Origin: Acidimicrobiia bacterium
GTDB taxonomy: Bacteria > Actinomycetota > Acidimicrobiia > Spongiisociales > UBA5794
Assembly: GCA_030066265.1 (NCBI GenBank)
Contig: JASJCF010000011.1
Coordinates: forward strand, 883-64,882
Direction of reading: 5' to 3'
Length of the DNA stretch: 64,000 nt
Under the pieces are notes generated by a model that did not search any database, was not told the DNA's origin, and saw nothing but the letters and a program-made list of their open reading frames with translations. Positions within the stretch are counted from its first letter, which is position 1, and the number at the start of each line of letters is the position of its first letter. This document shows, piece by piece, positions 1,112 through 46,803 of the stretch. The translations under genes and the position numbers were made by a program.

Positions 1112-1672
1112 ATGGGAATCACAACAATGGGATACTGCTCCCACATGAGAGTCGTTGGATACGTACGCGAGCTGCCTGGACACCAACAGGCCGACACGGC
1201 GTTTGCGCAATCAGAGCGCATCCGACGATGGGTGCGCGACACCGGCAACGAGCTGATCGCCACCTGTGAGGATCGATTCGCCTCAGCTCCGAACGAGCGC
1301 CCCGGCTACCGCGCCATGATCGAGATCGTGCGCACCGGGACGGTCGATGCGGTCGTCGTCGCCTCCCTGCAGGCGCTCGGGAGCGACAAAGTGCTCCAGG
1401 AGATCATCTTCGGTGACATCCGCTCGGCCGGACCTGCCGTCATCTCGACGGACGTCACGGATCACGAGATCTTGCTCGAGCAGGGAGACGATCCGGTGCG
1501 GATGGTGGTGCGGGACGTCGTTGCCCGCGTCCTCGAGTACGAAGCGGCATATGGCCTGAGCTCGGCTCCCACGGAGACGACCGAGCAGGTGATCTCCCTC
1601 ACCCAAGAGGAGCATGGAGACCCCGGCGACGCAGCCGACGTGGTCGTCGAGCTGATCGCCCCGACTGGCTGA
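1112..1672 (+). CDS. Resolvase-like protein (serine-recombinase catalytic-domain fold) lacking the catalytic serine and lacking a C-terminal HTH
   Basis: 'MRVVGYVRELPGHQQ...RPGYRAMIEIVRTGTVDAVVVASLQALGSD' aligns with the resolvase N-terminal domain (consensus VGYARVSTxxQ ... RPgl ... lvv ... ldRl.R). The nucleophile position reads E-L instead of V-S, and there is no recognisable DNA-binding HTH at the C-terminus. The start could be ATG 1112, 1127 or 1148. Local GC is visibly lower in 1040-1150. Confidence 0.5.
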   Translation: MGITTMGYCSHMRVVGYVRELPGHQQADTAFAQSERIRRWVRDTGNELIATCEDRFASAPNERPGYRAMIEIVRTGTVDAVVVASLQALGSDKVLQEIIFGDIRSAGPAVISTDVTDHEILLEQGDDPVRMVVRDVVARVLEYEAAYGLSSAPTETTEQVISLTQEEHGDPGDAADVVVELIAPTG

Positions 1673-3057: not shown

Positions 3058-4029
3058 GTGTCCGCAACGCAGGATGACCTCACTTGGTTCGGTGATCGAT
3101 ACGCATCGATCACCGACAACATGGAGCGAGTGATCCAGGGCAAGCGCCCCACGATCGAGCTCGTCGTCTCGAGCATGGTCGCCCAAGGCCACGTCTTGAT
3201 CGAGGACGTTCCCGGCGTGGGCAAGACGCTCCTTGCCAAGTCGCTCGCACGCTCGATCGACTGTTCGTTCCAGCGCATTCAGTTCACGCCAGACTTGCTC
3301 CCGTCGGACGTCACCGGCGTCTCGGTGTGGGACCGTGAGCAGAACACGTTTCGATTCCGCCCTGGGCCGGTGTTCGGGAACGTGGTCCTCGGCGACGAGA
3401 TCAACCGAGCGAGCCCGAAGACCCAAGCCTCGCTCCTCGAGGCCATGGAAGAGCGCCAGATCACCGTGGATGCCGAGACACACCCGCTTGCCGAGCCGTT
3501 CATCGTCATCGCCACGCAGAACCCGATCGAACACGAAGGCACCTATCCCCTCCCGGAGGCGCAGCTCGACCGGTTCATGATGCGCCTGACCATCGGGTAC
3601 CCCGACCGATCGAAGGAGCTCGAGATGCTCCAGACGCACGGGTCGTCGTCGACGATGGACGACCTGGGGCCCGTCGTCCACGCCCAGGACGTCGTCAGGA
3701 TGTCCGCCATTGCCCGTGCGATCCACGTCGCCGACGTGCTGCAGGGATATCTCATCGACCTCGCCGAAGCGACCCGTTCCCATCCCGATGTCCTGCTCGG
3801 CGCCTCCCCCCGGGCGACGCTCTTCCTCCAACGGGCCGCTCGGGCCATTGCAGCTGCCGATGCACGCGACTACGTGTCGCCCGATGACGTCAAAGGAATC
3901 CTCGACCCCGTCCTCAACCATCGCATCATCGTGCGGCCCGATGCCCAGATGCGGGGCCTGACGTCGTCGGACATCATCGATGAAGTCGCCGCAACCGTTC
4001 CCGTACCCGGGACACGGGTCACCGCCTGA
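3058..4029 (+). CDS. MoxR-family AAA+ ATPase
   Basis: Walker A 'PGVGKTLLAKSLA'. 'DLLPSDVTG' and 'VLGDEINRASPKTQASLLEAMEERQITVD...FIVIATQNPIEHEGTYPLPEAQLDRF' match the MoxR/RavA signature. GTG start is preceded by GGAGG. Confidence 0.9.
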   Translation: MSATQDDLTWFGDRYASITDNMERVIQGKRPTIELVVSSMVAQGHVLIEDVPGVGKTLLAKSLARSIDCSFQRIQFTPDLLPSDVTGVSVWDREQNTFRFRPGPVFGNVVLGDEINRASPKTQASLLEAMEERQITVDAETHPLAEPFIVIATQNPIEHEGTYPLPEAQLDRFMMRLTIGYPDRSKELEMLQTHGSSSTMDDLGPVVHAQDVVRMSAIARAIHVADVLQGYLIDLAEATRSHPDVLLGASPRATLFLQRAARAIAAADARDYVSPDDVKGILDPVLNHRIIVRPDAQMRGLTSSDIIDEVAATVPVPGTRVTA

Positions 4030-5213
4030 TGCCGACCACCCGAGGATGGGCGGCCCTCGGTGCGTCGCTCGCTCTCGCGATCTTGTGGCTCGCATTCGGA
4101 GAGGATCTCCTGCTCGCCCTTGCCGTCTTCCTCCTGGCAGGCATCGTCGGCGGTTCGATCTACGTGCGGCTTGCGGCACCCAGGCTCTCACTCGCCCGAT
4201 CCATCAACCCCGAGCAGCTCCACGATGGCGAGCGCGCTCTGGTCGATCTCGCGCTCCGCTCCCAGCGACGGGTCTATCGAGTCTCGGTCGAGGACCGCGT
4301 TCACGGCCTCGGTGCGGCACGGTTCGTCGCCGATCGGATCAGCCCCACGGAGGCGCTGGCGGGCCGGTACGAGGTCCTGTGCCGTCCCAGGGGCGTCTAC
4401 AGAGTCGGCCCCGCCCGCGTGTCGCTCGGAGATCCGCTCGGATTCGTCGAATCGACGACCCAGTTCGGCCAAGCGAGCCGTCTGGTCGTGTACCCACGAG
4501 TCGAGGGGCTCGAAGGCGTGCCCACGGGTCGCGGCCAGGATCAGACCATCAACACCTCGCGCGCTGCGTTCTGGCATTCCGGCGGCGAGGACTTCTTCAC
4601 CCTGCGCGAGTACCACCAGGGTGACGATCTGCGCAAGGTCCATTGGCCTTCGTCCGCACGGCGCGACGAGCTCATGATCAAGCAGCTCGAGATGCCATGG
4701 CAGTCCCGGGCATTCATCGTGTTGGATCCGAGGGTGGAGCCGCATGCCTCCGCCGAGAGCTTCGAACAGGCCGTTCGCGGCGCCGCCTCGACGCTACGTC
4801 ATCTCTACCGGTCCGGCTACACCCCCACGGTCTGGGCGGGCCACGGCGACGGGACCGTCGTGTCGAATGCCGAGGCATATCGCAAGGCGATGGAGGAACT
4901 GGCAACGATCAGCCCTGCCCGCTCGATCGACCTTCGCAGCCTCATCGGGAGATTGCGGAGATCGGGGATGGCCGGCGGTGTGCTCGTGATGGTCACGGGA
5001 CAGCCCGACGACGCCGATCTCGCCTCGTTCCAACTCCTGAGTCAGGACTTCTACCGAACGGTCGTGCTCTCGGTGACGAACGGTGATGACGAGGCGATCG
5101 TCGGATTTGCCAGACTCGGCGCCCTCGTCGTGAGGACGACACCCACGGGCTCATGGGCCGAGTCGTGGCGCAACGCAATGGAGCACGGATGGTCTACCGC
5201 TTCAGCTGGATAG
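4029..5213 (+). CDS. DUF58 domain protein (VWA-like partner of MoxR)
   Basis: 'EYHQGDDLRKVHWPSSARRDELMIKQLE' is the DUF58 signature. The start ATG overlaps the MoxR stop (TGATG). N-terminal TM segments are present. Confidence 0.85.
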   Translation: MPTTRGWAALGASLALAILWLAFGEDLLLALAVFLLAGIVGGSIYVRLAAPRLSLARSINPEQLHDGERALVDLALRSQRRVYRVSVEDRVHGLGAARFVADRISPTEALAGRYEVLCRPRGVYRVGPARVSLGDPLGFVESTTQFGQASRLVVYPRVEGLEGVPTGRGQDQTINTSRAAFWHSGGEDFFTLREYHQGDDLRKVHWPSSARRDELMIKQLEMPWQSRAFIVLDPRVEPHASAESFEQAVRGAASTLRHLYRSGYTPTVWAGHGDGTVVSNAEAYRKAMEELATISPARSIDLRSLIGRLRRSGMAGGVLVMVTGQPDDADLASFQLLSQDFYRTVVLSVTNGDDEAIVGFARLGALVVRTTPTGSWAESWRNAMEHGWSTASAG

Positions 5214-7603
5214 CAGGCGTCGCAGCGATCGCTCTCGCCTTCTGGGAGCTGACCGGGCTGCTGCGCGACTCGAACGATGGGCTGCCGTGGCCGGTTGCGA
5301 TCCTCGTGGCGACGCTGCTGGGAGCCGGGATCACCTGGACCGCAATCGCCTACCGCGCACCTGCGGTCGTGACCGTGCTCGTCAACGTCGTTGCGTACGT
5401 GATCACGGTCGGGTTCCTGGTCGCACCCGACACCCTCATCGTGTTCATACCCACCGTCGAGACCTGGGACGCGCTGTGGTTCGAGGTGGGCCGAGCTCTC
5501 GAGATCATCCGGTACGGCGTCGAACCCGTGCGTCCGGTGCCGGGGTTGGTCCTGCTCTTGTCGTCCTTGTTCTGGACCCTCGGGTTCCTGCTCGTCGCAG
5601 GCCTCCTCAATGGGAGGCCGTTCGTCGCCATCCTGACGCCGCTCATCGTCGCTCTCCAGTTCGTGATCATCGACCGGCGACCGAAGGGCCTCTTGCACCT
5701 CGCCATGTTCGTGGGCGTGGTTGCGTTCGGCCTGCTCGCGATCCGCATCGACGAGCGCGACAGCGGCGCCGGGCGGTTGCGGCGCGTCGGGGCGACGACG
5801 AGGCCCACCCGACGTCCTTCCGTTGCGGTCAGCGCCCTCGTCGTGGCCACCGTGGTGTCATCGCTGCTGGTCGTGGGTCTCGCAGGCGAGCGGGTGCCCA
5901 ACGACGGGCTCATCCCCTGGAGGGCGCCGGCGGGCTTCACGGACGACTACTCCGGATCGATCGCCTACAACCCCTACACCGACATCCGAGCCGGGCTCAA
6001 CCGCCAGACGCTCACGCCGGTTTTCCGGGCGCGGATCGAAGGCGTCGATCCCGACACGGTGCGATTCCGCACGGTCACGCTCGACGCCTATCGCAACGGC
6101 CGATGGGGAACCGATCGGGTGCAGGCGTTCCCCCTCGAGGACGAGCCGTGGATCGACCCCGTGCAGGCCTATCGCGGAGAGACCGATCGCGTCGCCACCG
6201 TGATCGCGATCGACAAGCTCAAGCAGCCGTGGCTGCCCGCGCCTGACACCCCCATCGCCGCCGCCGCTGAGCGCACAGACGACACGAACGCCATGCGCGT
6301 GCGCCGGGTCGACGGGTCGCTCATCATGCCCGGCGACTTGACGTACGAGGGCATGCGGTACGAAGTGCTCTCCGACGTGCCTCGCTTCGACGGGCCGACC
6401 GTCGCCGCGCTCGCCCTGGCCGAGGACGGCACGCTGAGCCCGTTGTTCGTCGCCGCCGAGGACGGAGGTGAAGTCCTGCCGGACTTCGCCAGTGCGCCCG
6501 AGGTCCTCGAGCTCCCGGACGAGGACTACTGGCTCGAGCTCCCGGAGGATGAGATCGGGGCCCAATTCGTGGCGATCTCCGAAGCACAGGTGGTCGGCCT
6601 CGAGACGAACTTCGAGAAGGCGCTCGCCCTCGAGAACTACTTCCGAGACTCCGGCGAGTTCACCTACGACTCGGCGGTGCCGGGCGAGTACACCACGGGC
6701 GACGTGACCGAGTGGCTCTCCGACGAGGAGAACCCGTACGTCCGCCACGGCTACTGCGAGCAGTTCGCCACCGCCATGGCGCTCATGGCGCGGGCAGTGG
6801 GTGTTCCCAGCCGCGTCGTGCTCGGCTTCACCCCTGGCGAGCCCATCAACGACGACACCGTGCAGGTGTACGACAAGAACGCCCACAGCTGGGTCGAACT
6901 GTGGATCCCCGCTTACGGCTGGATGGCCTTCGACCCCACGCCGAGGGCGAACTACTCGGCGCAAACGGCGAACGACGTCCTCGAGGAGAGCCTGGGCTTC
7001 TCGGCTGCGGCCTACATCGAGGAGATCCCGGCTCCGTCACTCGTCGACCTCGGAACCGACGATGACTTCGGCCCCGACGCAGGGCGCTTCGAGGATCGGG
7101 AGGGGGTCACGAGCCCCATCGTCCCGGGAGCCGGCGGATCCGACGGCGATTCCTCTGGCTTCCAGCCCCCGTCCTGGTTTGTGCCCGTCCTGACGCTCGG
7201 TCTGCTCGCGCTCGTTGCCGCGCTCGCTGCCCCCATCACCCAGTGGTGGCGGAGGCGTCGATACGCCAAGCGGCTCGCCGGTGGCGATGTGGCTGCGGCA
7301 TGGGAGGACATCGTCGACCGGTTGCTCGACCTCAACGAAGCGGTCGATCCGGCGAGCACACCCCTCGAGGCCGCCCACGAGATCGATGATGCATTCATCC
7401 CCCTCGCCAGCACGTACAGCACGTCCCTCTACGGGAACGGTGATGGCGACCGGGCGCTCGCGTCCCGCGCTGCCACCGAGCACGATCGCGCAACGCGACA
7501 CCTGACGACGAGATACTCACGCAGCGAACGATTCGTGGCCACCTACCGCCCGTCGAAGCTGCGCCGACGGTGGCGATCGATCAGGAGCCGGCTCCGCCGC
7601 TGA
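5153..7603 (+). CDS. Transglutaminase-like membrane protein (DUF3488/TGase/DUF4129 architecture)
   Basis: Six or more N-terminal TM helices. Transglutaminase core 'GYCEQFATAMALMARAVGVPSRVVLGFTPG...NAHSWVELWIPAYGWMAFDPTP' (Cys-His-Asp triad context). This is the usual third gene of MoxR-DUF58-TGase triads. The start is uncertain (ATG 5153, GTG 5165 or ATG 5189) and overlaps the DUF58 3' end by 25-60 nt. Confidence 0.85.
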   Translation: MGRVVAQRNGARMVYRFSWIAGVAAIALAFWELTGLLRDSNDGLPWPVAILVATLLGAGITWTAIAYRAPAVVTVLVNVVAYVITVGFLVAPDTLIVFIPTVETWDALWFEVGRALEIIRYGVEPVRPVPGLVLLLSSLFWTLGFLLVAGLLNGRPFVAILTPLIVALQFVIIDRRPKGLLHLAMFVGVVAFGLLAIRIDERDSGAGRLRRVGATTRPTRRPSVAVSALVVATVVSSLLVVGLAGERVPNDGLIPWRAPAGFTDDYSGSIAYNPYTDIRAGLNRQTLTPVFRARIEGVDPDTVRFRTVTLDAYRNGRWGTDRVQAFPLEDEPWIDPVQAYRGETDRVATVIAIDKLKQPWLPAPDTPIAAAAERTDDTNAMRVRRVDGSLIMPGDLTYEGMRYEVLSDVPRFDGPTVAALALAEDGTLSPLFVAAEDGGEVLPDFASAPEVLELPDEDYWLELPEDEIGAQFVAISEAQVVGLETNFEKALALENYFRDSGEFTYDSAVPGEYTTGDVTEWLSDEENPYVRHGYCEQFATAMALMARAVGVPSRVVLGFTPGEPINDDTVQVYDKNAHSWVELWIPAYGWMAFDPTPRANYSAQTANDVLEESLGFSAAAYIEEIPAPSLVDLGTDDDFGPDAGRFEDREGVTSPIVPGAGGSDGDSSGFQPPSWFVPVLTLGLLALVAALAAPITQWWRRRRYAKRLAGGDVAAAWEDIVDRLLDLNEAVDPASTPLEAAHEIDDAFIPLASTYSTSLYGNGDGDRALASRAATEHDRATRHLTTRYSRSERFVATYRPSKLRRRWRSIRSRLRR

Positions 7604-34852: not shown

Positions 34853-35718
34853 ATGCGCCGGTGACGAGCCCGCCGCGCGCCATGCCTGCGCTGGTCACGC
34901 CCTTCGATCGTGATGAGGCGATCGATCTCGACGCCCACCGCTCGAACATCACGGCGATGAGCGAGCGAGGAGCACGCGGGGTGGTGCTCGCAGGCTCCAC
35001 CGGTGAGGGGCCGTATCTCGACCGCGGCGAGCGGGCCGCGCTCGTACAGGTCGCTGCGGACGAGCAACCGGAGATGACCCTCGTGTGCGGCATCCAAGCC
35101 GAGACGACTCGCGACGCCAGCAGGCAGACGGCCGAGTGCGAGCACGCCGATCTCGTGCTGGTGGTCACGCCCACCACCCTCGTGCGCGGACGCGTTGGGG
35201 CGGTCGAGCAGTTCTATCTCGATGTCGCCGACCAGAGTCCGGTCCCGGTCCTCCTGTACTCGGTGCCCTCCGTGACGGCCTGGGAGCTGCCAACGGCGTC
35301 GGTGCGGCGCCTCGCAACCCACGACAACATCGTCGGCATGAAGGACTCCGGTGGGGATCCCACCAGGATCGCCGAACTCCACGATGTGATCGATGACGGG
35401 TTCTTCATGTATGCAGGGGCGTCGCAAGCACTCGCCGAGAGCTCGCGAGCGGGAGCATGGGGAGCGATCACCGCATCGGGCAACTACGCGATCGCCGACG
35501 TGTCGCTCGCAGCGAGAGGAGACGACCAGGCCCAACGGCGTCTCGGCGAGCTCGCCGGCATCGTCGAGCGCCATGGGATCGCCGGCACGAAGTACGCCGC
35601 CCACGTCAGTGGCCTCGATGCCGGCATCGCCCGCAGGCCGGTGATGCCACTCGCGAAGTCCGCCCGCGAAGAGATCGCAACCGCCGTCCGTGCAGCGGGG
35701 CTCGCTTCATCGCAGTGA
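34849..35718 (+). CDS. DapA-family (dihydrodipicolinate synthase/N-acetylneuraminate lyase family) class I aldolase
   Basis: 'GVVLAGSTGEGPYL' and the Schiff-base lysine context 'IVGMKDSGGD'. GTG 34849 overlaps the gnd stop (GTGA). The alternative start is ATG 34882. Confidence 0.7.
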   Translation: MNAPVTSPPRAMPALVTPFDRDEAIDLDAHRSNITAMSERGARGVVLAGSTGEGPYLDRGERAALVQVAADEQPEMTLVCGIQAETTRDASRQTAECEHADLVLVVTPTTLVRGRVGAVEQFYLDVADQSPVPVLLYSVPSVTAWELPTASVRRLATHDNIVGMKDSGGDPTRIAELHDVIDDGFFMYAGASQALAESSRAGAWGAITASGNYAIADVSLAARGDDQAQRRLGELAGIVERHGIAGTKYAAHVSGLDAGIARRPVMPLAKSAREEIATAVRAAGLASSQ

Positions 35719-35743
35719 TCCGGACACCGGTACCTTTCCCGGG

Positions 35744-36838
35744 ATGCACCTCGGAATCCGAAGAGAATCGACGTCCGGCGAACGACGCGTTGCGTCGCCG
35801 CCCGCGCTCGTCGCATCCTTCCGCGACCTCGGATTCGACGTCTCGATCGAGACGGGGGCGGGCGATCTCGCAGGATTCTCCGATGCCGACTACGCCGCAT
35901 CCGGTGCCGACGTCGTCGAGACTCTCGACGGTGGACGTCCCGTCGACGTTCTGCTCACGGTCGGGCCGGTCGTCGCCGACGACACGGCATCCGTGACGAC
36001 CGGCGGTGTCGTCGTAGGCCTTCTCGACCCGACGAATCACCCCGATCTCGCCGGCGACCTCGCCGAGCGCGACGTGACGGCGATCGCCATGGAGCTCGTC
36101 CCTCGGTCGACCCTCGCCCAATCCATGGACGCGCTTTCATCTCAGGCGACCGCAGCCGGATATGCCGCCGTGTTGCTCGGGGCGACGGAGCTCCCCAAGT
36201 TCATGCCCATGTTCGTGACCGCTGCCGGGACCATCCCGCCTGCACGCGTCCTCATCCTCGGCGTGGGCGTTGCCGGGCTCCAGGCGATCGCAACGGCGAA
36301 GCGATTGGGTGCCATCGTGTACGCCTACGACATCAGACCCGAGACGAAGGAGCAGGTCGAGAGCCTCGGGGGGCGGTTCGTCGATGCGCCGACCCAGGAG
36401 ATGGATGAAGGTGGCTATGCAAGGGCCGTGGACGAGGCCACAGCTCAGCAGCAGCGTGAGATCCTCGCCGAGGTTGTTGCCGATTCCGATCTCGTCATCA
36501 CGACGGCACAGGTCCCCGGACGACGAGCGCCGCGCCTCATCGAGGCGGACGTCGTGAAGCGCATGCGCCCGGGCTCGCTCGTCATCGACATGGCCGCCGC
36601 TTCGGGAGGCAACGTCGAGGGTTCTCGCCCCGATGAAGCCGTCGACGCCTCCGGTGTCACGATCCTCGGCCCAACCGACCTCCCGTCTCGCGTGGCCGCA
36701 GACGCCAGCCGCATGTACGGCAGGAACCTGCTCGAGCTCGTCACACGGCTCGTCACCGATGAAGGGATCACCATCGATACCGACGACCCCGTCGTCGGGC
36801 CCGCGATCGTTCGGACACAGGAGAACGTCGATGAGTGA
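35744..36838 (+). CDS. pntA: NAD(P) transhydrogenase alpha subunit, dI (NAD-binding) part
   Basis: 'MHLGIRRESTSGERRVA' N-terminus and 'LILGVGVAGLQAIATAKRLGAIV' Rossmann motif of the AlaDH/PNT family. The start was chosen at the internal ATG. Confidence 0.85.
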   Translation: MHLGIRRESTSGERRVASPPALVASFRDLGFDVSIETGAGDLAGFSDADYAASGADVVETLDGGRPVDVLLTVGPVVADDTASVTTGGVVVGLLDPTNHPDLAGDLAERDVTAIAMELVPRSTLAQSMDALSSQATAAGYAAVLLGATELPKFMPMFVTAAGTIPPARVLILGVGVAGLQAIATAKRLGAIVYAYDIRPETKEQVESLGGRFVDAPTQEMDEGGYARAVDEATAQQQREILAEVVADSDLVITTAQVPGRRAPRLIEADVVKRMRPGSLVIDMAAASGGNVEGSRPDEAVDASGVTILGPTDLPSRVAADASRMYGRNLLELVTRLVTDEGITIDTDDPVVGPAIVRTQENVDE

Positions 36839-37127
36839 CGCGTTCATCGCAGGGATCGTCGTGTTCGTGCTCGCCGCGTTCGTGGGTTTCGAGATCATCC
36901 GGCGCGTGCCACCCACGTTGCACACCCCGTTGATGTCCGGCGCCAACGCCATCTCCGGCATCACGATCGTCGGTGCGATCATCGCCGCAGCACTCGCCGA
37001 TGGTTGGCTCGCCGTCGTCATCGGCTTCCTCGCAGTGGTCTTCGCGACCGTCAACGTCATCGGCGGCTTCCTCGTGACGGACCGCATGCTCGAGATGTTC
37101 AAGCGAGTTCCCGGGAAGCCGAAGTGA
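36831..37127 (+). CDS. NAD(P) transhydrogenase alpha subunit membrane part (PntAB)
   Basis: 98-aa protein with 3 TM helices 'FVLAAFVGFEIIRRVPPTLHTPLMSGANAISGITIVGA'. It overlaps pntAA by 8 nt. Confidence 0.8.
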   Translation: MSDAFIAGIVVFVLAAFVGFEIIRRVPPTLHTPLMSGANAISGITIVGAIIAAALADGWLAVVIGFLAVVFATVNVIGGFLVTDRMLEMFKRVPGKPK

Positions 37128-38491
37128 CGGAGCTCGCCTACCTCGCCGCCGGCGTCTTGTTCATCGTGGGCCTGAAGGGTCTCACCTCGCCGACCACGGC
37201 GCGTCGTGGCAATCGCCTGGCGGCGCTCGGCATGCTGCTGGCCGTGATCGTCGTCGTGGTGGACCTCATCGTGGACGACGTCGCTGCTGCCTGGGCGGTG
37301 GTCATCGCCGGCCTCATCGTCGGCGGTGCCATCGGGTTCATCCTGGCGACCCGTGTGCAGATGACCGACATGCCCCAGCTCGTTGCTGCATTCAACGGGT
37401 TCGGAGGTGGCGCATCGGCCCTCGTCGCATCGGCAGCCATCGTGGCCGCAGGATCCGGCGTCGCCACCGAAACGGCGGTCGTCACGGTGCTCTCGCTGGT
37501 GATCGGAGCCGTCACGCTCAGTGGCTCGTTCGTCGCCTTCGGGAAGCTGCAGGGAATCATCGCCGGCCGCCCGATCTCCCCCCCTGGCGGCACGGCGACA
37601 AACGGGGTCATCGCCGCCCTCACGGTGATCGCCGGGATCGCCGCCGTGGCAACCGGCGAGGACGTCTGGTACTGGGTCGCCGGAGGGCTCGCCCTCGTAC
37701 TCGGTGTTTCCGCAGTGATGCCGATCGGTGGTGCCGACATGCCCGTCGTTATCTCGCTGCTCAACTCCCTGTCGGGTGTCGCCGCGGCGATGGCCGGCTT
37801 CGTCATCGGGAACCAGGCTCTCATCGTCGGAGGCGCGCTCGTTGGAGCGGCAGGGTTCATCCTCACGGTCGAGATGTCCGTCGCCATGAACCGGTCACTC
37901 GCCAACATCCTCTTCTCGGGGTTCGGTGGGGCGCCGGTGTCCGACGACATCGGCACCAAGCCCGTGAAGCGTGCCACCGCCGATGACGCCGCCATCGCCC
38001 TCGCCTATGCGGACAAGGTCGCCGTGGTACCGGGGTATGGCCTCGCCGTCGCTCAGGCCCAACATGCCGTCAAGGACCTCGCCTCAGCGCTCGAGGAGCG
38101 CGGGATCGACGTGTACTACGCCATCCACCCGGTGGCTGGGAGGATGCCGGGCCACATGAACGTGCTCCTCGCAGAGGCGGACGTGCCCTACGACCAGCTG
38201 TACGACCTGGACCAGGCGAATCCCCAACTGACCCAGACCGACGTAGTCCTCGTCCTGGGAGCAAACGACGTCATCAACCCGTCCGCCAAGGACGATCCGG
38301 ACTCCCCGATCTACGGCATGCCGATCCTCGACGTCGACGAGGCAACGACGACCATCGTCGTCAAGAGAAGCCTCTCCCCGGGCTTCGCCGGCATCGACAA
38401 CCCGCTGTTCTACGAGGACGGGACCCTGATGTACTTCGCAGATGCGAAGCAGGCGCTCGAAGAGACACTCTCGGCCGTGGAACGCCTCTAG
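37124..38491 (+). CDS. pntB: NAD(P) transhydrogenase beta subunit
   Basis: N-terminal TM bundle and C-terminal dIII 'VAVVPGYGLAVAQAQHAV...LVLGANDVINP'. GTG start overlaps the upstream stop (GTGA). Confidence 0.85.
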   Translation: MTELAYLAAGVLFIVGLKGLTSPTTARRGNRLAALGMLLAVIVVVVDLIVDDVAAAWAVVIAGLIVGGAIGFILATRVQMTDMPQLVAAFNGFGGGASALVASAAIVAAGSGVATETAVVTVLSLVIGAVTLSGSFVAFGKLQGIIAGRPISPPGGTATNGVIAALTVIAGIAAVATGEDVWYWVAGGLALVLGVSAVMPIGGADMPVVISLLNSLSGVAAAMAGFVIGNQALIVGGALVGAAGFILTVEMSVAMNRSLANILFSGFGGAPVSDDIGTKPVKRATADDAAIALAYADKVAVVPGYGLAVAQAQHAVKDLASALEERGIDVYYAIHPVAGRMPGHMNVLLAEADVPYDQLYDLDQANPQLTQTDVVLVLGANDVINPSAKDDPDSPIYGMPILDVDEATTTIVVKRSLSPGFAGIDNPLFYEDGTLMYFADAKQALEETLSAVERL

Positions 38492-39097
38492 ATGGAGCTC
38501 CTCGACCTCCTGAGTCGACGACGCATGGTGCGCGCCTACACCGACGCACCCGTGACGGCCGCACAACTCGCCCGGATCACGTCCGCAGGATCCCGCGCCC
38601 CGTCGGCAGGTGCGGCCCAGGGCCAACGCTTCGTCATCGTCACCAGCCCCGAGGTCATCTCGGCGTTGGCAGACGCAGCGAACGAGGAGCACTACACCGC
38701 CCGCGGATACCCGGCATGGCTCTCATCGGCCCCTGCCCACATCGCCGTGTGCGTCGACCCGACTGCCTACGCCGAGCGGTATCGCCGTGACGACAAGAAG
38801 ACGTCGGCGGTGGCTGATGAGGCGACCGGCGAGTGGGCCGTGCCGTACTGGTGGGTCGATGCCGGCGCGTCGCTGATGGCGATCCTGCTCGCCGCCGTCG
38901 ATGAGGGACTGGCCTCCGGGTTCCTCGGAGCGCATGCGATCCCCGATGCGAAGCGCATCCTCTCGATTCCCGACGAGGTGGAGTTCGTCGGGCTCGTGAC
39001 GGTGGGCCATCCTGCGCCCGAAGCACCTCGTCCGCCAACCCGACGCGGCGTCGGGGTGAGCGACGCCATCGTCCATCACGACGTCTGGACGACCTGA
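38492..39097 (+). CDS. Nitroreductase-family protein
   Basis: 'RRRMVRAYTDAPVTAAQLARITSAGSRAPSAG...QRFVIV' is the nitroreductase fold N-terminus. The ATG directly abuts the pntB stop. Confidence 0.7.
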   Translation: MELLDLLSRRRMVRAYTDAPVTAAQLARITSAGSRAPSAGAAQGQRFVIVTSPEVISALADAANEEHYTARGYPAWLSSAPAHIAVCVDPTAYAERYRRDDKKTSAVADEATGEWAVPYWWVDAGASLMAILLAAVDEGLASGFLGAHAIPDAKRILSIPDEVEFVGLVTVGHPAPEAPRPPTRRGVGVSDAIVHHDVWTT

Positions 39098-39098
39098 G

Positions 39099-40151
39099 TC
39101 ACCGCCCGACCGCTCGCAAGGCCTGGTCGAGATCTGCGACGAGATCCTCGACGTCTTCGATGCCGATCGACATGCGGACCAGGCCGGGATCGGTCTCCGG
39201 ATCGGATCGAACCCGGTGCTCGGCGAGGGACTCCACGCCCCCGAGCGACGTGGCGACGGTGAACACGCCGAGGGCAGTCAGGAATCCATCAGCGGTGTCT
39301 GCATCGCCGAGGTCGATCGACATCAGCGATCCCATCGATCGCATCTGCCGTTTCGCGACGTCGTGCCCGGGATGAGAGGCGAGGCCCGGATACCACGTGC
39401 GAATGGCCCGCTCGTCGACGAACGCGGCGATCAGCTGTGCCGATGCCGCAGCCCGTTCCTGGCGGAGGGGCAAGGTCCGCACACCCCGCAAGGCGAGCCA
39501 GGCATCGAGGCTGCCAGGCACCGACCCGTGGACCACTCGCTCATCCCGCAGACCTTCGGCCTCCTCGGTGTCACTGACGACGACCAGGCCGGCGAGCGCA
39601 TCCGAATGCCCGGCGATGGCTTTCGTGGCCGAGTGCATCACGACATCGGCCCCGAAGGCCAACGGGTTCATGCCCGCAGGAGTGGCAAACGTGGCGTCAC
39701 ACACCACGATTGCCCCCACCGCATGTGCGTTTGCCGCAACGTCCTCGAGGTCGGTGATCTGACACGTCGGGTTCGACGGGGTCTCGACCCACCAGATGTC
39801 ACCCTCGCCGAGGCCACTGGGATCGGTGATCTCGAGCCTGCCCGCACCTCGTTCGCGCTCCATGAGGTCCCGCACGCCGTGATACACCTCCGGCAGCACG
39901 ATGCGATCGGGCCGGTATCGACTCACGATGGCGGATGCCGCCGCCATACCGGACGAGTAGGCGACAGCCGAGCCTCCTTCGAGGGCCCCGATCACCGCCT
40001 CGAGCCGCTCGGTCGTCTCATGACTCGACCTCCGGTAGCGCCTCCCGGTGTCCTCCTGGAAGGTGGTGGACGGCCTGATGGGTGGGGCGACGTCAGGCGA
40101 TTCCGCCAGAGACCGGTCGGCATGGATGCTGGTGGTGGATCGCCCGGGCAC
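39099..40151 (-). CDS. Cys/Met-metabolism PLP enzyme (cystathionine gamma-synthase/beta-lyase family)
   Basis: PLP-lysine region 'VVMHSATKAIAGHSDALAGLVVV' and the 'TFATP...NPLAFGADV' pattern of the MetB/MetC family. Confidence 0.8.
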   Translation of the reverse strand: MPGRSTTSIHADRSLAESPDVAPPIRPSTTFQEDTGRRYRRSSHETTERLEAVIGALEGGSAVAYSSGMAAASAIVSRYRPDRIVLPEVYHGVRDLMERERGAGRLEITDPSGLGEGDIWWVETPSNPTCQITDLEDVAANAHAVGAIVVCDATFATPAGMNPLAFGADVVMHSATKAIAGHSDALAGLVVVSDTEEAEGLRDERVVHGSVPGSLDAWLALRGVRTLPLRQERAAASAQLIAAFVDERAIRTWYPGLASHPGHDVAKRQMRSMGSLMSIDLGDADTADGFLTALGVFTVATSLGGVESLAEHRVRSDPETDPGLVRMSIGIEDVEDLVADLDQALRAVGR

Positions 40152-40248
40152 GCTGCGATTCTATTGGACGCCGCCTCGACATCCACGACTGCCGGTGATG
40201 CCTCCGTGACCGGGTAGCATCCCGGCCACCGTCGAGAACTACGGAGCC

Positions 40249-41397
40249 ATGAACCTCTCCCTGACCTCCCGAAACCCATACGACCCGCCCATCGAGTTCG
40301 TCGAGCGCAAAGGCATTGGTCACCCCGACACCATCTGCGACCGACTCGCCGAGGAATTGGCGTGCCAACTCGCCGACGAGTACCGAACCCACACCGGCGC
40401 CGTGCGCCACTTCAACGTGGACAAAGCGATCCTCGCCGCAGGCGCGGTGGACATCGGATTCGGTGGCGGCGAGCACATCAAGCCGTCCAAGCTCGTGCTC
40501 GTCGGCAAGGCGACCTATGGCTTCGATTGGCAACCCGACGTCGAATCGTTGGCCAAGCAGTACCACGCCCGCCTCCTCGAGTTGCTCCCCGACGCCACGC
40601 CCGAGGCATTCGATGTCGAGGTCTGGCTGAACCACTCGTCGTCCGATCTCGCTGCCGTGGTGCATGCCGAGGAGATCGCACCGCTTGCGAATGACACCTC
40701 GTTCGCCGCTGTCTCCGCTCCCAGATCGACGCTCGAGTCCATCGTGCACGACGTCGAGCGGCACCTGAACACCGACGGCTATCGCGCCGGGAACCCCATC
40801 GGGCGCGACATCAAGGTCATGGGTGCTCGGGAGGGGAACGACATCACCATCACGATCGCGTGCCCCGTCCTGGCAACCAAGGTCTCCAACCGGGGTGAGT
40901 ACGACGAGGTGGTCGCAAGGGTCCAGTCCGACGCCACCGAGGTGGCATCGGCCATCGCCGGGCGTCCCGTCACGGTTCGGGTCAACCAGGCGGACCAGGA
41001 GGATTCGGCCTACCTCACCCTCACCGGCACCTCCGCCGAGGCGGGTGACGACGGTCAGGTCGGTCGCGGGAACCGCTTCGGCGGGCTCATCACGCCATAT
41101 CGACCGATGAGTCTCGAGGCCGCTGCCGGGAAGAACCCCGCATCCCACGTCGGCAAGACCTATCACGCGATCGGCTACGACATCAGCCGGAGGCTGCTCG
41201 CCGAGACGGACACGTCGGACGTGACGCTGCGACTGCTGTCGTCGATCGGCCACCTCGTCACCGAGCCCCAAGCGGTCCACGTCGAAGTGGCGGGAACGGT
41301 CGATGAGCGTCAGGTGGAACAGATCAGCGCGGAGTGCTTCGATGACTGGGCCGCTGTCACGGATCGATTGATCGCAGGCGAGTACGAGCTCTTCTAG
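40249..41397 (+). CDS. Archaeal-type S-adenosylmethionine synthetase (MAT, PF01941-like)
   Basis: It is colinear with the archaeal MAT family: '[13 protein letters not shown]', '[13 protein letters not shown]', '[10 protein letters not shown]', and '[52 protein letters not shown]'. In Methanocaldococcus MAT, as recalled from memory, the corresponding motifs are ERKGLGHPDSICD ... [45 protein letters not shown]. It is not the bacterial MetK type. Confidence 0.8.
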
Positions 41398-42630
41398 GTG
41401 GCCGCACTGATCGATCGGGCGAAGGCGGCTGATGCCGCCGATCAGCTCAACCAGTACCGGGACCGGTTCGCCCTCGATCCCGGTCTCATCTACCTCGACG
41501 GCAACTCGCTGGGCCCGCCTCCCGCAGACGTGATCGGCGAGGTCGCTCCCGCCGTGGTGTCGGAGTGGGCCCGTGAGCTCGTCATGGGTTGGGACTCGTG
41601 GATCGATCTCGGATTGTCGATCGGAGACGAGCTCGCTCCCATCCTCGGCGCACGCCCGGGCGAGGTGGCGTTGACAGACCAGACCTCGGTCAACCTGTAC
41701 AAGCTGGCGACCGCTGCCCTGCGGAGCACCGATGGACGCGTCATCGTCACCGAGGCGGGGAACTTCCCGTCCGACCGCTACGTGCTCGCAGCGGTGGCAG
41801 CCGCCGAAGGCGGCCGGCTCCTCGAGATCCCTGACGCATCAGATCTCGATCACGTGTCGGCTGTCGTCGACGACACGGTCGGCCTGGTCGCCCTCTCGCA
41901 TGTCGACTACCGCACCGGAGCCCTCCACGACGCATCGACGATCACCGACCTCGTGCATCGCCGCGGCGCGATGGTGTTGTGGGACCTCGCCCACTCGGCG
42001 GGTGCCGTACCGGTCGAACTCGCAGACGGAGAGGTCGACCTCGCCGTCGGGTGCACGTACAAGTACCTCAACGGCGGGCCCGGGGCACCCGGGTACCTCT
42101 ACGTCCGCTCGGCGCTCCAGACCGACCTCCGCCAGCCGATCGAGGCCTGGTTCGGACACGCCGACCAGTTTGCGTTCGCCGACGGGTTCGATCCGGCGCC
42201 GTCGATTCGGAGGTTCCAGACCGGAACGCCACCGGTCCTTTCCCTCCTCTGCGCGCGAGCAGGGATCGACGTGACCGCCTCGGCAGGCATCGACCGCATC
42301 CGCGCCAAGAACGTGTCCCTCACGTCGTTGTTCCTCGACGCAGTGGCATCGGCGAACTCGGCGAGCGAGTTGCGGATCGTGACCCCGCGAGAGCCGGACC
42401 GTCGCGGTGCGCACGTCGCCGTCAGCCACCCGAAGGCGTACCAGATCAGCCAGGCACTTCGATCCCAGCGGATCATCGTCGACTACCGGGCTCCCGATCT
42501 TCTGCGCTTCGGATTCGCCTCGCTGTACAACAGCCACGAGGAGGCCGTCCGGGCGGCGGAGGCCCTCGACGGAGTCATCGCCTCCCGGGCATGGGAACGA
42601 CACCCACCGCAGCGGTCAGGGGTCACCTGA
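41398..42630 (+). CDS. kynU: Kynureninase
   Basis: 'IYLDGNSLGPPP' and the PLP fold 'CTYKYLNGGPGAPGYLYV' (Lys in KYLN). 410 aa. Confidence 0.8.
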   Translation: MAALIDRAKAADAADQLNQYRDRFALDPGLIYLDGNSLGPPPADVIGEVAPAVVSEWARELVMGWDSWIDLGLSIGDELAPILGARPGEVALTDQTSVNLYKLATAALRSTDGRVIVTEAGNFPSDRYVLAAVAAAEGGRLLEIPDASDLDHVSAVVDDTVGLVALSHVDYRTGALHDASTITDLVHRRGAMVLWDLAHSAGAVPVELADGEVDLAVGCTYKYLNGGPGAPGYLYVRSALQTDLRQPIEAWFGHADQFAFADGFDPAPSIRRFQTGTPPVLSLLCARAGIDVTASAGIDRIRAKNVSLTSLFLDAVASANSASELRIVTPREPDRRGAHVAVSHPKAYQISQALRSQRIIVDYRAPDLLRFGFASLYNSHEEAVRAAEALDGVIASRAWERHPPQRSGVT

Positions 42631-42646
42631 ACGTCACACCTGAACG

Positions 42647-43519
42647 TCACAGGTGGGTCCTCGGGGCGGTTCGAGGCCCGCGACGGGGAGCGTGGACGTG
42701 CTCTTGCACGAGCGCGACCATGACATGGCGGCGAAAGGGGCGATAGGGAGCCAGCAACTCGAGCATGCGCTCGTCGGTCCCGCGCTCCTCGCCGGCGAGC
42801 GCCCAAGCGACGGTGTTGGGGAGGTGATAGTCACCCACCTGGACCGCATCGCGATCTCCCCACGACTCCCCCATCACACCGGCCGCCGTCCAGGGGCCGA
42901 CACCCCGAATCGCCAGGAGCCGCCGGTAGGCATCGTCACGATCCATCGACAGGATCTCGCTCAGCCGCTGCGAACGCCGGCTCACTTCGATCAGCGCCTC
43001 GGCCCGCTTCCGCTCGATGCCACATCGGTGGAGATCCTCGTACGAAAGGCCTGCGATCACGTCGGGGGCCGGGATGGCTCGCATCGGCCGGGGACCCGGA
43101 GCCGGCGACCCGTACGCACGGATGAGGTCTCGAAGGCTTCGCGTGGACTCGGGCCTGGTCACCACCTGTTCGAGGATGGTCTTGACGAGCGATCCGTGGA
43201 CGTCTCCCGTTGCTCCGAGCCGCAGCCCGGACACCCGCTTGAGGACCGTCGCTGCCGGCCCCGTGGCATCACTCGCCCGAAAAGGATCGTCGCTGCCGAC
43301 CATCGTCGGAAGCCTGTCCATCACCTCATCGACGCCGTCCCCCCACCCCGAGGCCACCACAGCGTCGTGTTCGGAACGCACAGCCACCGTCGCCGGACCC
43401 TTGGACGTGCTCGTCGCCCACCACCACCATCCCTGCCGGTCGAACGATCCCGCACCCAGGGCGCGCAGTGTCCGGCTCAACGAGAACGGGTCCGAAACCG
43501 CAAGACGTCTCACCAGCAC
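42647..43519 (-). CDS. DNA-3-methyladenine glycosylase II (AlkA-like, HhH-GPD)
   Basis: HhH-GPD motif 'LLAIRGVGPWTAAGVMGESWGDRDAVQVGDYHL' with the catalytic Asp, plus an AlkA-type N-terminal domain. The start is uncertain (GTG 43519 proposed); it must lie below 43598 where the divergent gene begins. Confidence 0.65.
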   Translation of the reverse strand: MLVRRLAVSDPFSLSRTLRALGAGSFDRQGWWWWATSTSKGPATVAVRSEHDAVVASGWGDGVDEVMDRLPTMVGSDDPFRASDATGPAATVLKRVSGLRLGATGDVHGSLVKTILEQVVTRPESTRSLRDLIRAYGSPAPGPRPMRAIPAPDVIAGLSYEDLHRCGIERKRAEALIEVSRRSQRLSEILSMDRDDAYRRLLAIRGVGPWTAAGVMGESWGDRDAVQVGDYHLPNTVAWALAGEERGTDERMLELLAPYRPFRRHVMVALVQEHVHAPRRGPRTAPRTHL

Positions 43520-43597
43520 GCTCGCACCGTACCGGCTCGCAGACGGGTCGACGGCGAGTGTTTGGCTAAGGCGACGCAAACGACCAACATCCCACTC

Positions 43598-44527
43598 ATG
43601 GCAGGACTGGTGATCGTCGGCGCCGGGCCCATCGGCACGATGGCGGCAGAGGCGGCCGTCGACGACGGGGCTGTCGACCAGATCGTGGGGGTCGTGGATC
43701 CCGATCCACGGGCCCGGCGAGAGTTGGTCGCGGCAACCGGCGCGCCGGGGTACACGTCGACGGTCGAACTGCCGCCCGCGACGCCCGGCGACGCAGCGTT
43801 GGTGGCCTTCGCCTCTGCAGCGGAGAAGGTCGCGCCCGAGGTGATCCGGCTGGTCTCCGCCGGCTACGACGTGGTCACGACCTGTGAAGGCCTCGCCTGG
43901 GCACCACGCCACCTGTGGGATGCCATGCACACGTCTGCGAGATCAGACGGCAGGACGATCATCGTCACCGGTACCAACCCCGGATTCGTGATGGATCGAC
44001 TTCCTCTCCTCGTCGCAGGGGCGAGCCGAAAGATCACCCGCATCCACGTGGAGCGACACCAGGACACCTCCGACCGACGACCGTCGCTCGTCGCCAAGTC
44101 CGGCAGAGGGCTGTCGCAAACGGAGTTCGCCGAGGGCGTCCGGAGCGGCCGCGTCGGCGCAAAGGGCCTCGACTCGAGCGCTCGCCTCATCGCTCGCGGC
44201 CTCGAATGGCCGTTCAACGACGTCTTCGTGACGATCGAGCCGGTTCTCGACGGCGACGCCGTCATCGGCGCGGCGCACCACGCTCGCCTCTCCGCGGGCC
44301 CCGGGCGCGAGATCGTCCTCGACCTCGTGATGGCGTGGGGCATCGAGCCGACGTTCGAACGCATCACGATCGACGGGATCCCACCGATCCGAATGGAGAC
44401 CATCGGTGGGCTGCCGGGAGACGAGGCCACGGTCGCGCACGTGGTCGGGGCGCTGCGCCGGCTCGGAACCCTCGCACCGGGCTTCTATCGCCCGACGGAC
44501 ATACCGATCCGGTACGGCGTGTCGTGA
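43598..44527 (+). CDS. DapB-like NAD(P)-dependent oxidoreductase (dihydrodipicolinate reductase/amine dehydrogenase family)
   Basis: 'GLVIVGAGPIGTMAAEAAV' Rossmann motif and 'IIVTGTNPGFVMDRLPLLV' of the DapB-N/C fold. Exact function unknown. Confidence 0.5.
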   Translation: MAGLVIVGAGPIGTMAAEAAVDDGAVDQIVGVVDPDPRARRELVAATGAPGYTSTVELPPATPGDAALVAFASAAEKVAPEVIRLVSAGYDVVTTCEGLAWAPRHLWDAMHTSARSDGRTIIVTGTNPGFVMDRLPLLVAGASRKITRIHVERHQDTSDRRPSLVAKSGRGLSQTEFAEGVRSGRVGAKGLDSSARLIARGLEWPFNDVFVTIEPVLDGDAVIGAAHHARLSAGPGREIVLDLVMAWGIEPTFERITIDGIPPIRMETIGGLPGDEATVAHVVGALRRLGTLAPGFYRPTDIPIRYGVS

Positions 44528-46803
44528 GCCGCCGGACGGTCCTGCGCACAGCCACCTCCTGTCTCGCTGCGGCGGTCCTGATGCTGTCGGCGGGCGCACC
44601 GGCTGCGGCGCAGTCGATCGATTGCGGTGAGTATCTCGGACTCGTGTGTGAGGGGGTGCTCACCGACGAGCCCGACGTGATCGTCGATCGAGCCCCGATC
44701 GAGGGCGAGATCCTGCGAGTCACCGACACCCACGGCAATCCCCTCGCCGTCGTGATCGCAACCGACTCGCGCGGTCAGGAACCCGTGGACTTCGCCGTGA
44801 ACGTCGCAAACGACTGGGGCGTCGGGGATCCGGTCGAGGAGAACGGCATCCTCGTCCTGGTCTCGGTCGAGGAACGCCGCACGGAGGTGGTCACGCAGGC
44901 CCAGGTGTCGATTCCCGGCACCGCCATCGCCAATGCCGGCAGGCCATTCTTCGGCGACGGGAACTTCGACGGTGGGGTTCTCGCCATCGTCGGCGCCATC
45001 GATACGGCCCTCTCCGGCGAGCCCGTTGCCGAGGAGAGCGAAGGCAGCGGCATCGTGGGGGGCATCCTCCTCGCGGGTGTCGTCGTCGGGCTCGGTGTGG
45101 CCGGCTTCGCCGCGTTCGTGAACCAGCGCCGCAACCGAGCCGAGGTGAAGCGCACGACGAGGAATCGTCGCATCGATCGTGCACTCGACAAGCTCAAGCC
45201 ACGTGGTGATGAGCTCGAGCTGACCTCGACGTTCGCCCGCGATGGACCTGATGGCCCCGACGTGACCACATCGGACGGCGTTGCGGGGCTGTTGGACCTC
45301 GAATCGAGGCGGGGCAAGGCGGTGCACGAGGATGTGGTGTCGGCGCTCGTCCGAGAGGATGCCGCCGGACTGATCGACAGCGATCGCCTGATCGAAGACA
45401 CGCGCGTCCCGCTCGAGTTGAAGGCGGGCGGAGAGCGCGCCATCCTCGAAGAGGGGCTCGACGGAGCCGTCGAGGAGGCCAAGGCCGTGCCTTTGTCGAA
45501 TGACGCGGCGTTCGACGTCGCCATCGGCGATCTCGAGAAGGTCGTGCAATCCCTCCGACCGCATCGAGTGGCAGCCGCTGTGCGCCGAGCCGCAGATTCA
45601 CTTGCGTCGGTGCTCGTGACGACGGCGATCGGCAAGGCGTACGTCACCCACCTGGGATCGCTGATCGTGCGTGCGTCCCCCGTCCTGGAGGGCACGATCC
45701 CACTGTCCGAGAGCGTGGACCAGGTTCGGACTGCCCATGCCGTTGCCGCCGACAAGGTCGATCGCATGACCCGTATCCGCAAGGCCATGTCCTCCTCGGA
45801 GACGAGAGATGTCGCCGCGCTCGCCCTCGCCGACGTGTCCGACGATGTCGACACCTCGCTCAGCGCCTATCAGACGACCCTCGACGAGCTCACCGAGCAG
45901 GGCCGATCGCTCATCGACGACGGGATCTCGCTACCCGCAGTTGCCGCCCTGCTGGTGATGAACAACTCCGCCAAGGACGTCAGCAAGTTCGTCCAGGGCT
46001 ACGGCCGACTCCGTCAGAGCTTCTCCCCCGGCATCGCCCTCGAGGGTGCGCTCGCCGGCCTGTTCACGGCCCCGGAGCTCCAGCGAGTCCGCGCTTCGGC
46101 GAAGGAGCTCGATCTCCCGGTCTCGATCGCCCTCGCCCTCGAGCGGCGACGGGACGATGGTGCTGCGGTCTATCGCCGTCTGCTCGAGCAGGTGTCGGTG
46201 ATCGCCGAGCCCGACGACGCCAGCGTGATCGCCGGCATGCTCGCGCTGTCGCTGGAGCCAGCGGTCGCTTACGAGCGCTGGGTCGACACCCGCAACGCCT
46301 TGACGGCGCTGGGCCTCGAGGGCTCCTACGTCGACGTGGCAGCGGCATTCGGTGCCTCCGACCCGCGCGGGCCGAAGGAGTTCGCACTCTCCTATGCAGC
46401 GCAGCGCTCGGCCCTGGAGGACTCCGGGCACGCCGATCTGACGCGGTACGCCCCGGAACTCGCACACGCAGGGACATCCCACCAGACCGACACGTGGACC
46501 GGACGTCCGCTCGGAACATCGCCTCGGGACTTCGATCCCTTCACCTTCTTCTATCTCCACTGGGCGGCTCGAAGTGGCAGGCCAGGAGGAGCGGGCTGGG
46601 ACTCCCTCTATCGGTCGCCCTCGTGGCAGGACGGCGGCTCGTCCTGGTGGGGCGGAGGACGCGGATTCGGTTCGGCCGGCGGGTCGTCGTGGGGTTCCGG
46701 GGGCTCCTCGTGGGGCGGCGGCGGGTTCTCAGGTGGCGGCTTCGGAGGCTTCGGCGGCGGAGGAGGCTTCGGCGGCGGAGGTGGGGGCGGAGGAGGGTGG
46801 TGA
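44524..46803 (+). CDS. TPM-domain (TLP18.3/Psb32/MOLO-1) membrane protein with a long helical central region and a poly-Gly C-terminal tail (YgcG/DUF2207-like)
   Basis: Tat-like signal 'SRRTVLRTATSCLAAAVLMLSAGAPAAAQS'. TPM core 'IATDSRGQEPVDFAVNVANDWGVGDPVEENGILVLVSVEERRTEVV...IPGTAIANAGRPFFGDGNFDGG'. One TM helix. About 400 aa of predicted helix. The tail is 'GGGRGFGSAGGSSWGSGGSSWGGGGFSGGGFGGFGGGGGFGGGGGGGGGW'. GTG start overlaps the upstream stop (GTGA). Confidence 0.65.
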   Translation: MSRRTVLRTATSCLAAAVLMLSAGAPAAAQSIDCGEYLGLVCEGVLTDEPDVIVDRAPIEGEILRVTDTHGNPLAVVIATDSRGQEPVDFAVNVANDWGVGDPVEENGILVLVSVEERRTEVVTQAQVSIPGTAIANAGRPFFGDGNFDGGVLAIVGAIDTALSGEPVAEESEGSGIVGGILLAGVVVGLGVAGFAAFVNQRRNRAEVKRTTRNRRIDRALDKLKPRGDELELTSTFARDGPDGPDVTTSDGVAGLLDLESRRGKAVHEDVVSALVREDAAGLIDSDRLIEDTRVPLELKAGGERAILEEGLDGAVEEAKAVPLSNDAAFDVAIGDLEKVVQSLRPHRVAAAVRRAADSLASVLVTTAIGKAYVTHLGSLIVRASPVLEGTIPLSESVDQVRTAHAVAADKVDRMTRIRKAMSSSETRDVAALALADVSDDVDTSLSAYQTTLDELTEQGRSLIDDGISLPAVAALLVMNNSAKDVSKFVQGYGRLRQSFSPGIALEGALAGLFTAPELQRVRASAKELDLPVSIALALERRRDDGAAVYRRLLEQVSVIAEPDDASVIAGMLALSLEPAVAYERWVDTRNALTALGLEGSYVDVAAAFGASDPRGPKEFALSYAAQRSALEDSGHADLTRYAPELAHAGTSHQTDTWTGRPLGTSPRDFDPFTFFYLHWAARSGRPGGAGWDSLYRSPSWQDGGSSWWGGGRGFGSAGGSSWGSGGSSWGGGGFSGGGFGGFGGGGGFGGGGGGGGGW

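Follow-up and report, generated by a model that had tools for sequence, protein, structure and literature searches.

Cells cannot do without methionine adenosyltransferase (MAT), or S-adenosylmethionine (SAM) synthetase, and the archaeal and bacterial forms of this enzyme serve as a textbook example of divergence between domains. Solved structures of the archaeal type include those of the P. furiosus enzyme (6S81 and 6S83), as well as 7P83 for the M. jannaschii MAT and 4L4Q for the T. kodakarensis MAT. The S. solfataricus enzyme (SsMAT) is found in the literature under 4HPV. The bacterial form is represented here by E. coli MetK (PDB 1RG9), with the Pfam domains PF00438, PF02772 and PF02773. 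The MetK and archaeal MAT families are distantly homologous, having the histidine of the GHPD motif in common (PMC1282579), and the identity between them is approximately 20% (PMC8727953). The archaeal family, PF01941, has been treated as purely archaeal in sequence networks and in ancestral reconstruction (PMC8727953), and a full-text search of the literature returned no paper on an archaeal-type MAT from Acidimicrobiia or, more broadly, from bacteria.

The gene analyzed here is bacterial and encodes an archaeal-type SAM synthetase. It lies in a 64-kb stretch of Acidimicrobiia DNA, referred to below as the window. Like the archaeal MATs, its product belongs to PF01941 (COG1812), and the two are colinear over approximately 356 residues at approximately 40-45% identity. 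The GHPD histidine, identical SAM-contact residues, the GKNP…HVGK motif and one further motif are shared with the archaeal enzymes. Unlike these, the protein comes from a bacterial host and is 382 aa long as opposed to 401-406 aa (a difference of approximately 20 residues; the N-terminus and the loops are both shorter). Unlike bacterial and eukaryotic MetK, it has no detectable MetK Pfam domains and neither the GAGDQG nor the GHPDK signature; the reaction is presumably the same as that of E. coli MetK (EC 2.5.1.6). PF01941 proteins were also encountered in other bacteria, i.e., in Trueperaceae, Aquificota/Desulfurobacterium, Burkholderiales, Brocadia/Loosdrechtia, Aminicenantes, Armatimonadota, Thermoflexus and Hyphomicrobiaceae, and thus the phenomenon is not unique to Acidimicrobiia.

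Family assignment

The initial annotation had described a 382-aa open reading frame in an actinobacterium and had assigned it to the archaeal MAT family rather than to MetK. The frame, which opens with ATG, is present as described, its translation contains all of the motifs that had been quoted, and the actinobacterial host is likewise supported. In a Pfam profile search, PF01941 (AdoMet_Synthase) matched the protein with an E-value of 5e-106 and 355.3 bits (cut-off 27) over model positions 14-395 of 395 and over the full length of the protein, whereas none of the bacterial MetK domains PF00438, PF02772 and PF02773 gave a match. A motif scan of all six frames of the 64-kb window likewise contained neither GAGDQG nor GHPDK, in agreement with the reported lack of MetK signatures. 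The top solved structures matching the protein were 7p83, 7p82, 6s81, 4l4q, 4hpv and 4ws9 (E 1e-72 to 2.5e-66), all of them, without exception, 'S-adenosylmethionine synthase' chains of the archaeal type.

Five NCBIfam MAT models (NF003362 to NF003366) also matched strongly, with E-values of 1e-66 to 1e-107, and the protein scored under the curated equivalog cut-off of all five, the best being NF003366 with 357.4 bits against a cut-off of 435. These scores, which also set it apart from the archaeal MATs, therefore mark the protein as a member of a divergent sub-family and leave its membership in the PF01941 superfamily unaffected. Altogether, the protein is a divergent bacterial addition to a known enzyme family, and annotation pipelines name it correctly.

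Active site and conservation

In the P. furiosus MAT, SAM is contacted by H59, N61, D141, L142 and D280 of one chain and by H30, D198 and Y268 of the other (PMC8727953). A phmmer alignment to 6s81_A placed H54, N56, D133, L134 and D267, together with H25, D187 and Y255, at the equivalent positions of the Acidimicrobiia protein, where all eight residues are identical; the catalytic histidine of GHPD is H25. The residues named for the T. kodakarensis MAT, i.e., His62, Asn64, Asn161, Asp144 and Leu145 (PMC3853416), correspond to the conserved residues H54, N56, N148, D133 and L134, as judged by motif position and by the alignment to the P. furiosus enzyme.

Conservation was assessed in an alignment of 98 sequences, in which 82 other PF01941 proteins define 97 columns with a conservation of 90% or more. 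Of these columns, 85 are kept in the Acidimicrobiia clade, and the changes in the remaining 12 are mostly conservative (e.g., R87K, G130S, G153A, N278G and I337V, the first four being clade-specific differences from the archaeal MATs). Within the locus, the MAT gene is one of the two best-conserved genes when compared with the relative L001, at 77% identity next to 78% for PntB, with PntAA, the PLP enzyme, kynureninase and the HhH-GPD protein at 53-68%. From the retention of the catalytic and contact residues and of the conserved columns, we infer that the protein functions as a methionine adenosyltransferase.

In a 16-sequence alignment, the motif around residue 55 is HFNVDK in the Acidimicrobiia clade and in the sister group, where most other PF01941 proteins have HHNVDK or HHNTD(Q/E); this HFN in place of HHN is another difference from the archaeal MATs. 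The second histidine of HHN is absent from the published SAM-contact lists.

Distribution and phylogeny

The best 120 clusters at 90% identity listed from a collection of 5.8 billion proteins were 69-99% identical to the MAT and nearly all 382-385 aa long. Where an organism was named among those listed, the record read 'MAG: methionine adenosyltransferase [Acidimicrobiia bacterium]' or '[Actinomycetota bacterium]', and these names indicate that the family is already correctly annotated in public databases. The near-uniform length of the listed homologues, few of which are called longer, is also the main support for the start codon of the gene. Amongst 1.84 billion representatives at 50% identity, 1469 relatives were found; the representative of the protein's own cluster was 62% identical to it, after which identities fell steeply to 53%, 47% and at most 45%.

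Organism labels were obtained from a scan of GTDB species genomes. Among the matches listed there, two Acidimicrobiia MAGs (77% and 65%) were followed by an unclassified bacterium (52%) and a Trueperaceae MAG (47%), and many archaea fell in the range of 37-45%, as did Aquificota, Desulfurobacterium, Aminicenantes, Acidobacteria, Burkholderiales, anammox Planctomycetota, Armatimonadota, Thermoflexus, Granulosicoccaceae and Hyphomicrobiaceae. A search with the sister protein P0123 returned a small clade in which Trueperaceae was the only organism name, and the next-best matches were Acidimicrobiia proteins.

A neighbor-joining tree of the matches listed (Kimura distances, 397 columns, 100 bootstraps) recovered the Acidimicrobiia clade and its sister group (Trueperaceae, P0126, L006 and P0123) with bootstrap values of 99 each, and the two together with a value of 100. 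They sit on a long stem that carries the midpoint root, apart from every archaeal PF01941 protein sampled and from those of the other bacteria, and the deep backbone of the tree is weakly supported. Among the matches listed, the Trueperaceae-containing group, at 47-53% identity, is thus the only specific kin of the Acidimicrobiia proteins, and the other bacterial PF01941 proteins (37-45%) take separate positions among the archaeal sequences, where backbone support is weak. The phylogeny that had been proposed as a check placed bacteria as the nearest relatives, with no archaeal donor visible in the neighbor-joining tree. Taken together, the tree and the searches leave an archaeal donor not identifiable and show the archaeal-type MAT scattered over several bacterial phyla.

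Neighboring genes and synteny in relatives

The features of the locus are collected in Table 1. The two neighbors given in the initial annotation, a divergent gene of the cystathionine gamma-synthase/beta-lyase family and a kynureninase gene that follows without a spacer, were both recovered by profile search. The product of the former is closest to cystathionine gamma-lyase and gamma-synthase models and scores below every equivalog cut-off. As for the latter, the TAG stop of the MAT gene ends at 41397 and the GTG start of the kynureninase gene is at 41398, which leaves 0 nt between them.

Table 1. Features at and around the MAT gene, with window coordinates.
Feature	Coordinates	Strand	Evidence or remark
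Resolvase (serine recombinase)	1112..1672	+	PF00239
pntAA, pntAB, pntB (transhydrogenase), then nitroreductase	35690..39097	+	Conserved upstream backbone anchoring the MAT locus in the Acidimicrobiia clade
Cys/Met-metabolism PLP enzyme, 350 aa	39099..40151	-	PF01053, 271 bits
Divergent intergenic region between the PF01053 and MAT genes, 97 nt	40152..40248	.	Without riboswitch, sigma-70 consensus match or conserved operator
GGAG, Shine-Dalgarno-like	40243..40246	+	2 nt upstream of the MAT ATG; short spacing
Archaeal-type (PF01941) methionine adenosyltransferase / SAM synthetase, 382 aa	40249..41397	+	Profile match, structure matches, residue mapping
Kynureninase, 410 aa	41398..42630	+	TIGR01814, 251.9 bits vs cut-off 246.4 (narrow pass); PF22580 C-terminal (KYNU_C) domain
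HhH-GPD glycosylase ORF, 427 aa	42647..43930	-	
TPM-domain protein, approximately 734 aa, glycine-rich tail	44599..46803	+	PF04536; downstream backbone gene

The locus was compared with those of relatives, in which it lies on the core backbone of contigs of 1.1-2.7 Mb; carriers include CAVWBO01 MFD09779.bin.1.312 (contig_91, 2.70 Mb), ERZ21269636 contig_45149 (1.84 Mb) and ERZ25071381 contig_5 (1.14 Mb). At 80% identity (a 1.84-Mb contig), the full order gnd–dapA–pntAA–pntAB–pntB–nitroreductase–PF01053(-)–MAT–kynureninase–HhH-GPD(-)–DAP_DH_C–TPM was present. The arrangement was otherwise the same at 77% identity (a 2.70-Mb contig), where the nitroreductase gene was not called, and at 73% identity, where two unannotated genes take the position of HhH-GPD. 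At 69% identity, an ABC transporter stands in the place of the PF01053 gene, and in a sub-clade with proteins of 384 aa (62-65% identity) the order was reduced to pntAB–nitroreductase–MAT–TPM. The pntAB–nitroreductase–MAT backbone was common to the Acidimicrobiia relatives examined (62-99% identity), and adjacency of PF01053 to MAT was confined to relatives of 73-99% identity. The absence of the PF01053 gene and the kynureninase block at 62-65% identity points to pntAB–nitroreductase–MAT–TPM as the ancestral backbone, which makes the PF01053 gene, like the kynureninase/HhH-GPD/DAP_DH_C block, a later, lineage-specific addition. This block, which occupies window positions 41398..44527 and is missing in relatives of 62% identity (cf. 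L084 7103..7963), was either inserted or lost as a unit.

The tight junction between MAT and kynureninase was kept at 69-99% identity, with spacers of 0 nt in L087, 2 nt in L001 and 13 nt in L086 and a 4-nt overlap in L002, and was absent in the 384-aa sub-clade. Such a junction makes co-transcription likely in this sub-lineage, where the two genes are probably also translationally coupled, as judged from their spacing.

Some minor features of these loci were also recorded. In the 1.84-Mb relative, the pntB call is split into ORFs of 344 and 111 aa (L087 2844..4210), which may reflect a frameshift, a pseudogene or an error in assembly. The TPM gene is conserved on the downstream side of the MAT locus in all Acidimicrobiia relatives, and its product has a very long C-terminal tail rich in glycine (…WGGGRGFGSAGGSSWGSGGSSWGGGGFSGGGFGGFGGGGGFGGGGGGGGGW). 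Homologues of the HhH-GPD protein are 249-291 aa long, shorter than the ORF in the window, and its real start is therefore probably internal.

Regulation and the proposed Met/SAM module

The initial annotation had interpreted the MAT gene and its divergent neighbor as a coherent Met/SAM module. This is borne out insofar as the PF01053 gene is adjacent at 73-99% identity, and it does not extend to the relatives in which an ABC transporter (69%) or neither gene (62-65%) takes that place; a shared riboswitch or operator was also lacking. A scan at Rfam gathering thresholds gave no match to a SAM riboswitch or to any other Rfam family in the whole window. Promoter and terminator matches did not rise above chance, with no consensus sigma-70 promoter in the divergent region, and among the relatives compared this region contained no conserved operator or intergenic motif. 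As a functional neighborhood, the Met/SAM module is thus plausible, though evolutionarily shallow, and both the kynureninase linkage and the head-to-head PF01053 gene are secondary, lineage-specific features and not a dedicated pathway.

A candidate Met operon at the Trueperaceae locus L007 was rejected; its PF01053 gene lies 2.5 kb upstream, and since a D-aminopeptidase gene and unknowns intervene, the arrangement is not a Met operon. In the sister clade of P0123 (L089 5177..7888 and L090 3..2474), the PF01941 gene is directly downstream of the gene for a large BTAD/AAA/TPR regulator (SARP/AfsR-like) and also beside two-component systems, a setting quite unlike the Acidimicrobiia locus.

Role in the cell

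By analogy with the solved archaeal enzymes, the protein would act as a homodimer, a state that is probable for this family member too, with active sites at the subunit interface. There, the methionine sulfur would attack C5' of ATP with the help of H25, the GHPD histidine, to give SAM and triphosphate, and the triphosphate would then be hydrolyzed.

We favor, with moderate confidence, the interpretation that this enzyme is the main or sole SAM synthetase of the cell, because it ranks in the top two of the locus in conservation, is nearly uniform in length and has a core-genome setting on contigs of 1.8-2.7 Mb. A tblastn search with E. coli MetK gave no match in the window or in 90 further loci (1.41 Mb). 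A bolder proposal is that this large Acidimicrobiia lineage lost MetK entirely and depends on a deep, bacteria-specific branch of PF01941, which would be shared only with the small Trueperaceae-containing group and would be separated from the sampled archaeal MATs by distances like those among the archaeal enzymes themselves. We regard this proposal as tentative, somewhat short of an even chance.

The strongest competing explanation is that the protein is an accessory second MAT beside a canonical MetK, maybe with a broader specificity for nucleotides or methionine analogues or under other regulation, in which case nothing would have been displaced. The divergence of the sub-family, with scores below the NCBIfam cut-offs, is consistent with such a role, as is the greater promiscuity of the archaeal MjMAT relative to E. 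coli MAT (PMC8727953, PMC3853416). However, high conservation, near-uniform length and a core-genome position are less expected of an accessory enzyme, and the size of the host contigs (1.8-2.7 Mb) suggests rather small genomes, where redundancy in MAT would likewise be less expected. We consider an accessory role unlikely, though it retains appreciable weight.

A far less probable explanation is that the protein is a neofunctionalised PF01941 homologue that makes no SAM and serves a small pathway with the kynureninase-like and PF01053 PLP enzymes. The two PLP enzymes flanking the gene, the tight kynureninase junction (0 to 13 nt, or overlap) across 69-99% identity and the long branch of the sub-family could be read in this way. 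Every substrate-contact and catalytic residue is kept, however, and both neighbors are missing in the 384-aa sub-clade, where MAT is followed by TPM, and in the sister clade, so the association is not a property of the enzyme family. We therefore hold this explanation to be very improbable beside a role as main or sole SAM synthetase.

Composition and age of the gene

The GC content of the MAT gene is 0.652, compared with 0.64-0.70 for the other genes of the window, and its GC3 is 0.843. Its synonymous codons were scored by their log-likelihood given the codon usage of the remaining genes in the window, and the resulting z of +1.04 groups it with ilvB, leuA and fabH. The comparison of composition with the neighbors, which had been suggested as a check, thus returned a native gene. 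It lies among housekeeping genes (ilvBNC, leuAB, gnd, dapA, pntAB … his operon) and has none of the odd composition, flanking mobility genes or patchy presence of a genomic island.

A recent horizontal acquisition from an archaeon on such an island, for which the predominantly archaeal make-up of PF01941 and the resolvase gene in the window might be cited, is effectively refuted by the native composition and codon usage, the 39 kb that separate the resolvase from the MAT gene, the retention of the locus across relatives of 62-99% identity and the bacterial identity of the closest relatives outside Acidimicrobiia (Trueperaceae, 47-53%, with archaeal proteins at no more than approximately 45% among the matches listed).

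The lateral acquisition put forward in the initial annotation consequently holds only as an ancient event. Native codons and GC3, a conserved core locus and bacterial nearest relatives argue against a recent one and date any transfer to before the radiation of the Acidimicrobiia lineage. The MAT gene is an old, native gene common to a group of Acidimicrobiia and not a recent import, and any transfer into Acidimicrobiia is ancient. The gene would have been acquired or retained before the lineage diversified and would since have been inherited vertically as a housekeeping-grade function. It is plausible that Acidimicrobiia and the Trueperaceae group exchanged the gene at a later time.

Implications and other features of the window

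On present evidence, the protein belongs to a known enzyme family, and its annotation is correct. A native, core PF01941 MAT in a large and abundant environmental bacterial lineage, possibly as its only MAT, would qualify the archaeal-only picture, and if MetK has been lost in the Acidimicrobiia lineage, then PF01941 would not be 'archaea-only', contrary to recent work on MAT evolution. Such proteins would offer mesophilic, bacterial-host versions of an enzyme prized in biocatalysis for its substrate promiscuity. Additionally, they would serve as a warning that completeness and marker assumptions based on MetK can fail in Acidimicrobiia.

The window otherwise contains ordinary bacterial core genes, i.e., fabD, fabH, acpP, fabF, ilvB, ilvN, ilvC, leuA, leuB, gnd and dapA, as well as pntAB, hisG, hisC, hisB, hisA and trpD. 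The resolvase gene is the sole mobility-related gene seen in it. High GC inflates ORF lengths across the window, an example being an antisense ORF of 395 aa (40093..41280) that overlaps the MAT gene. A cluster of genes for a MoxR AAA ATPase, a DUF58 protein and a transglutaminase-like TgpA protein is located at 3058..7603 (+).
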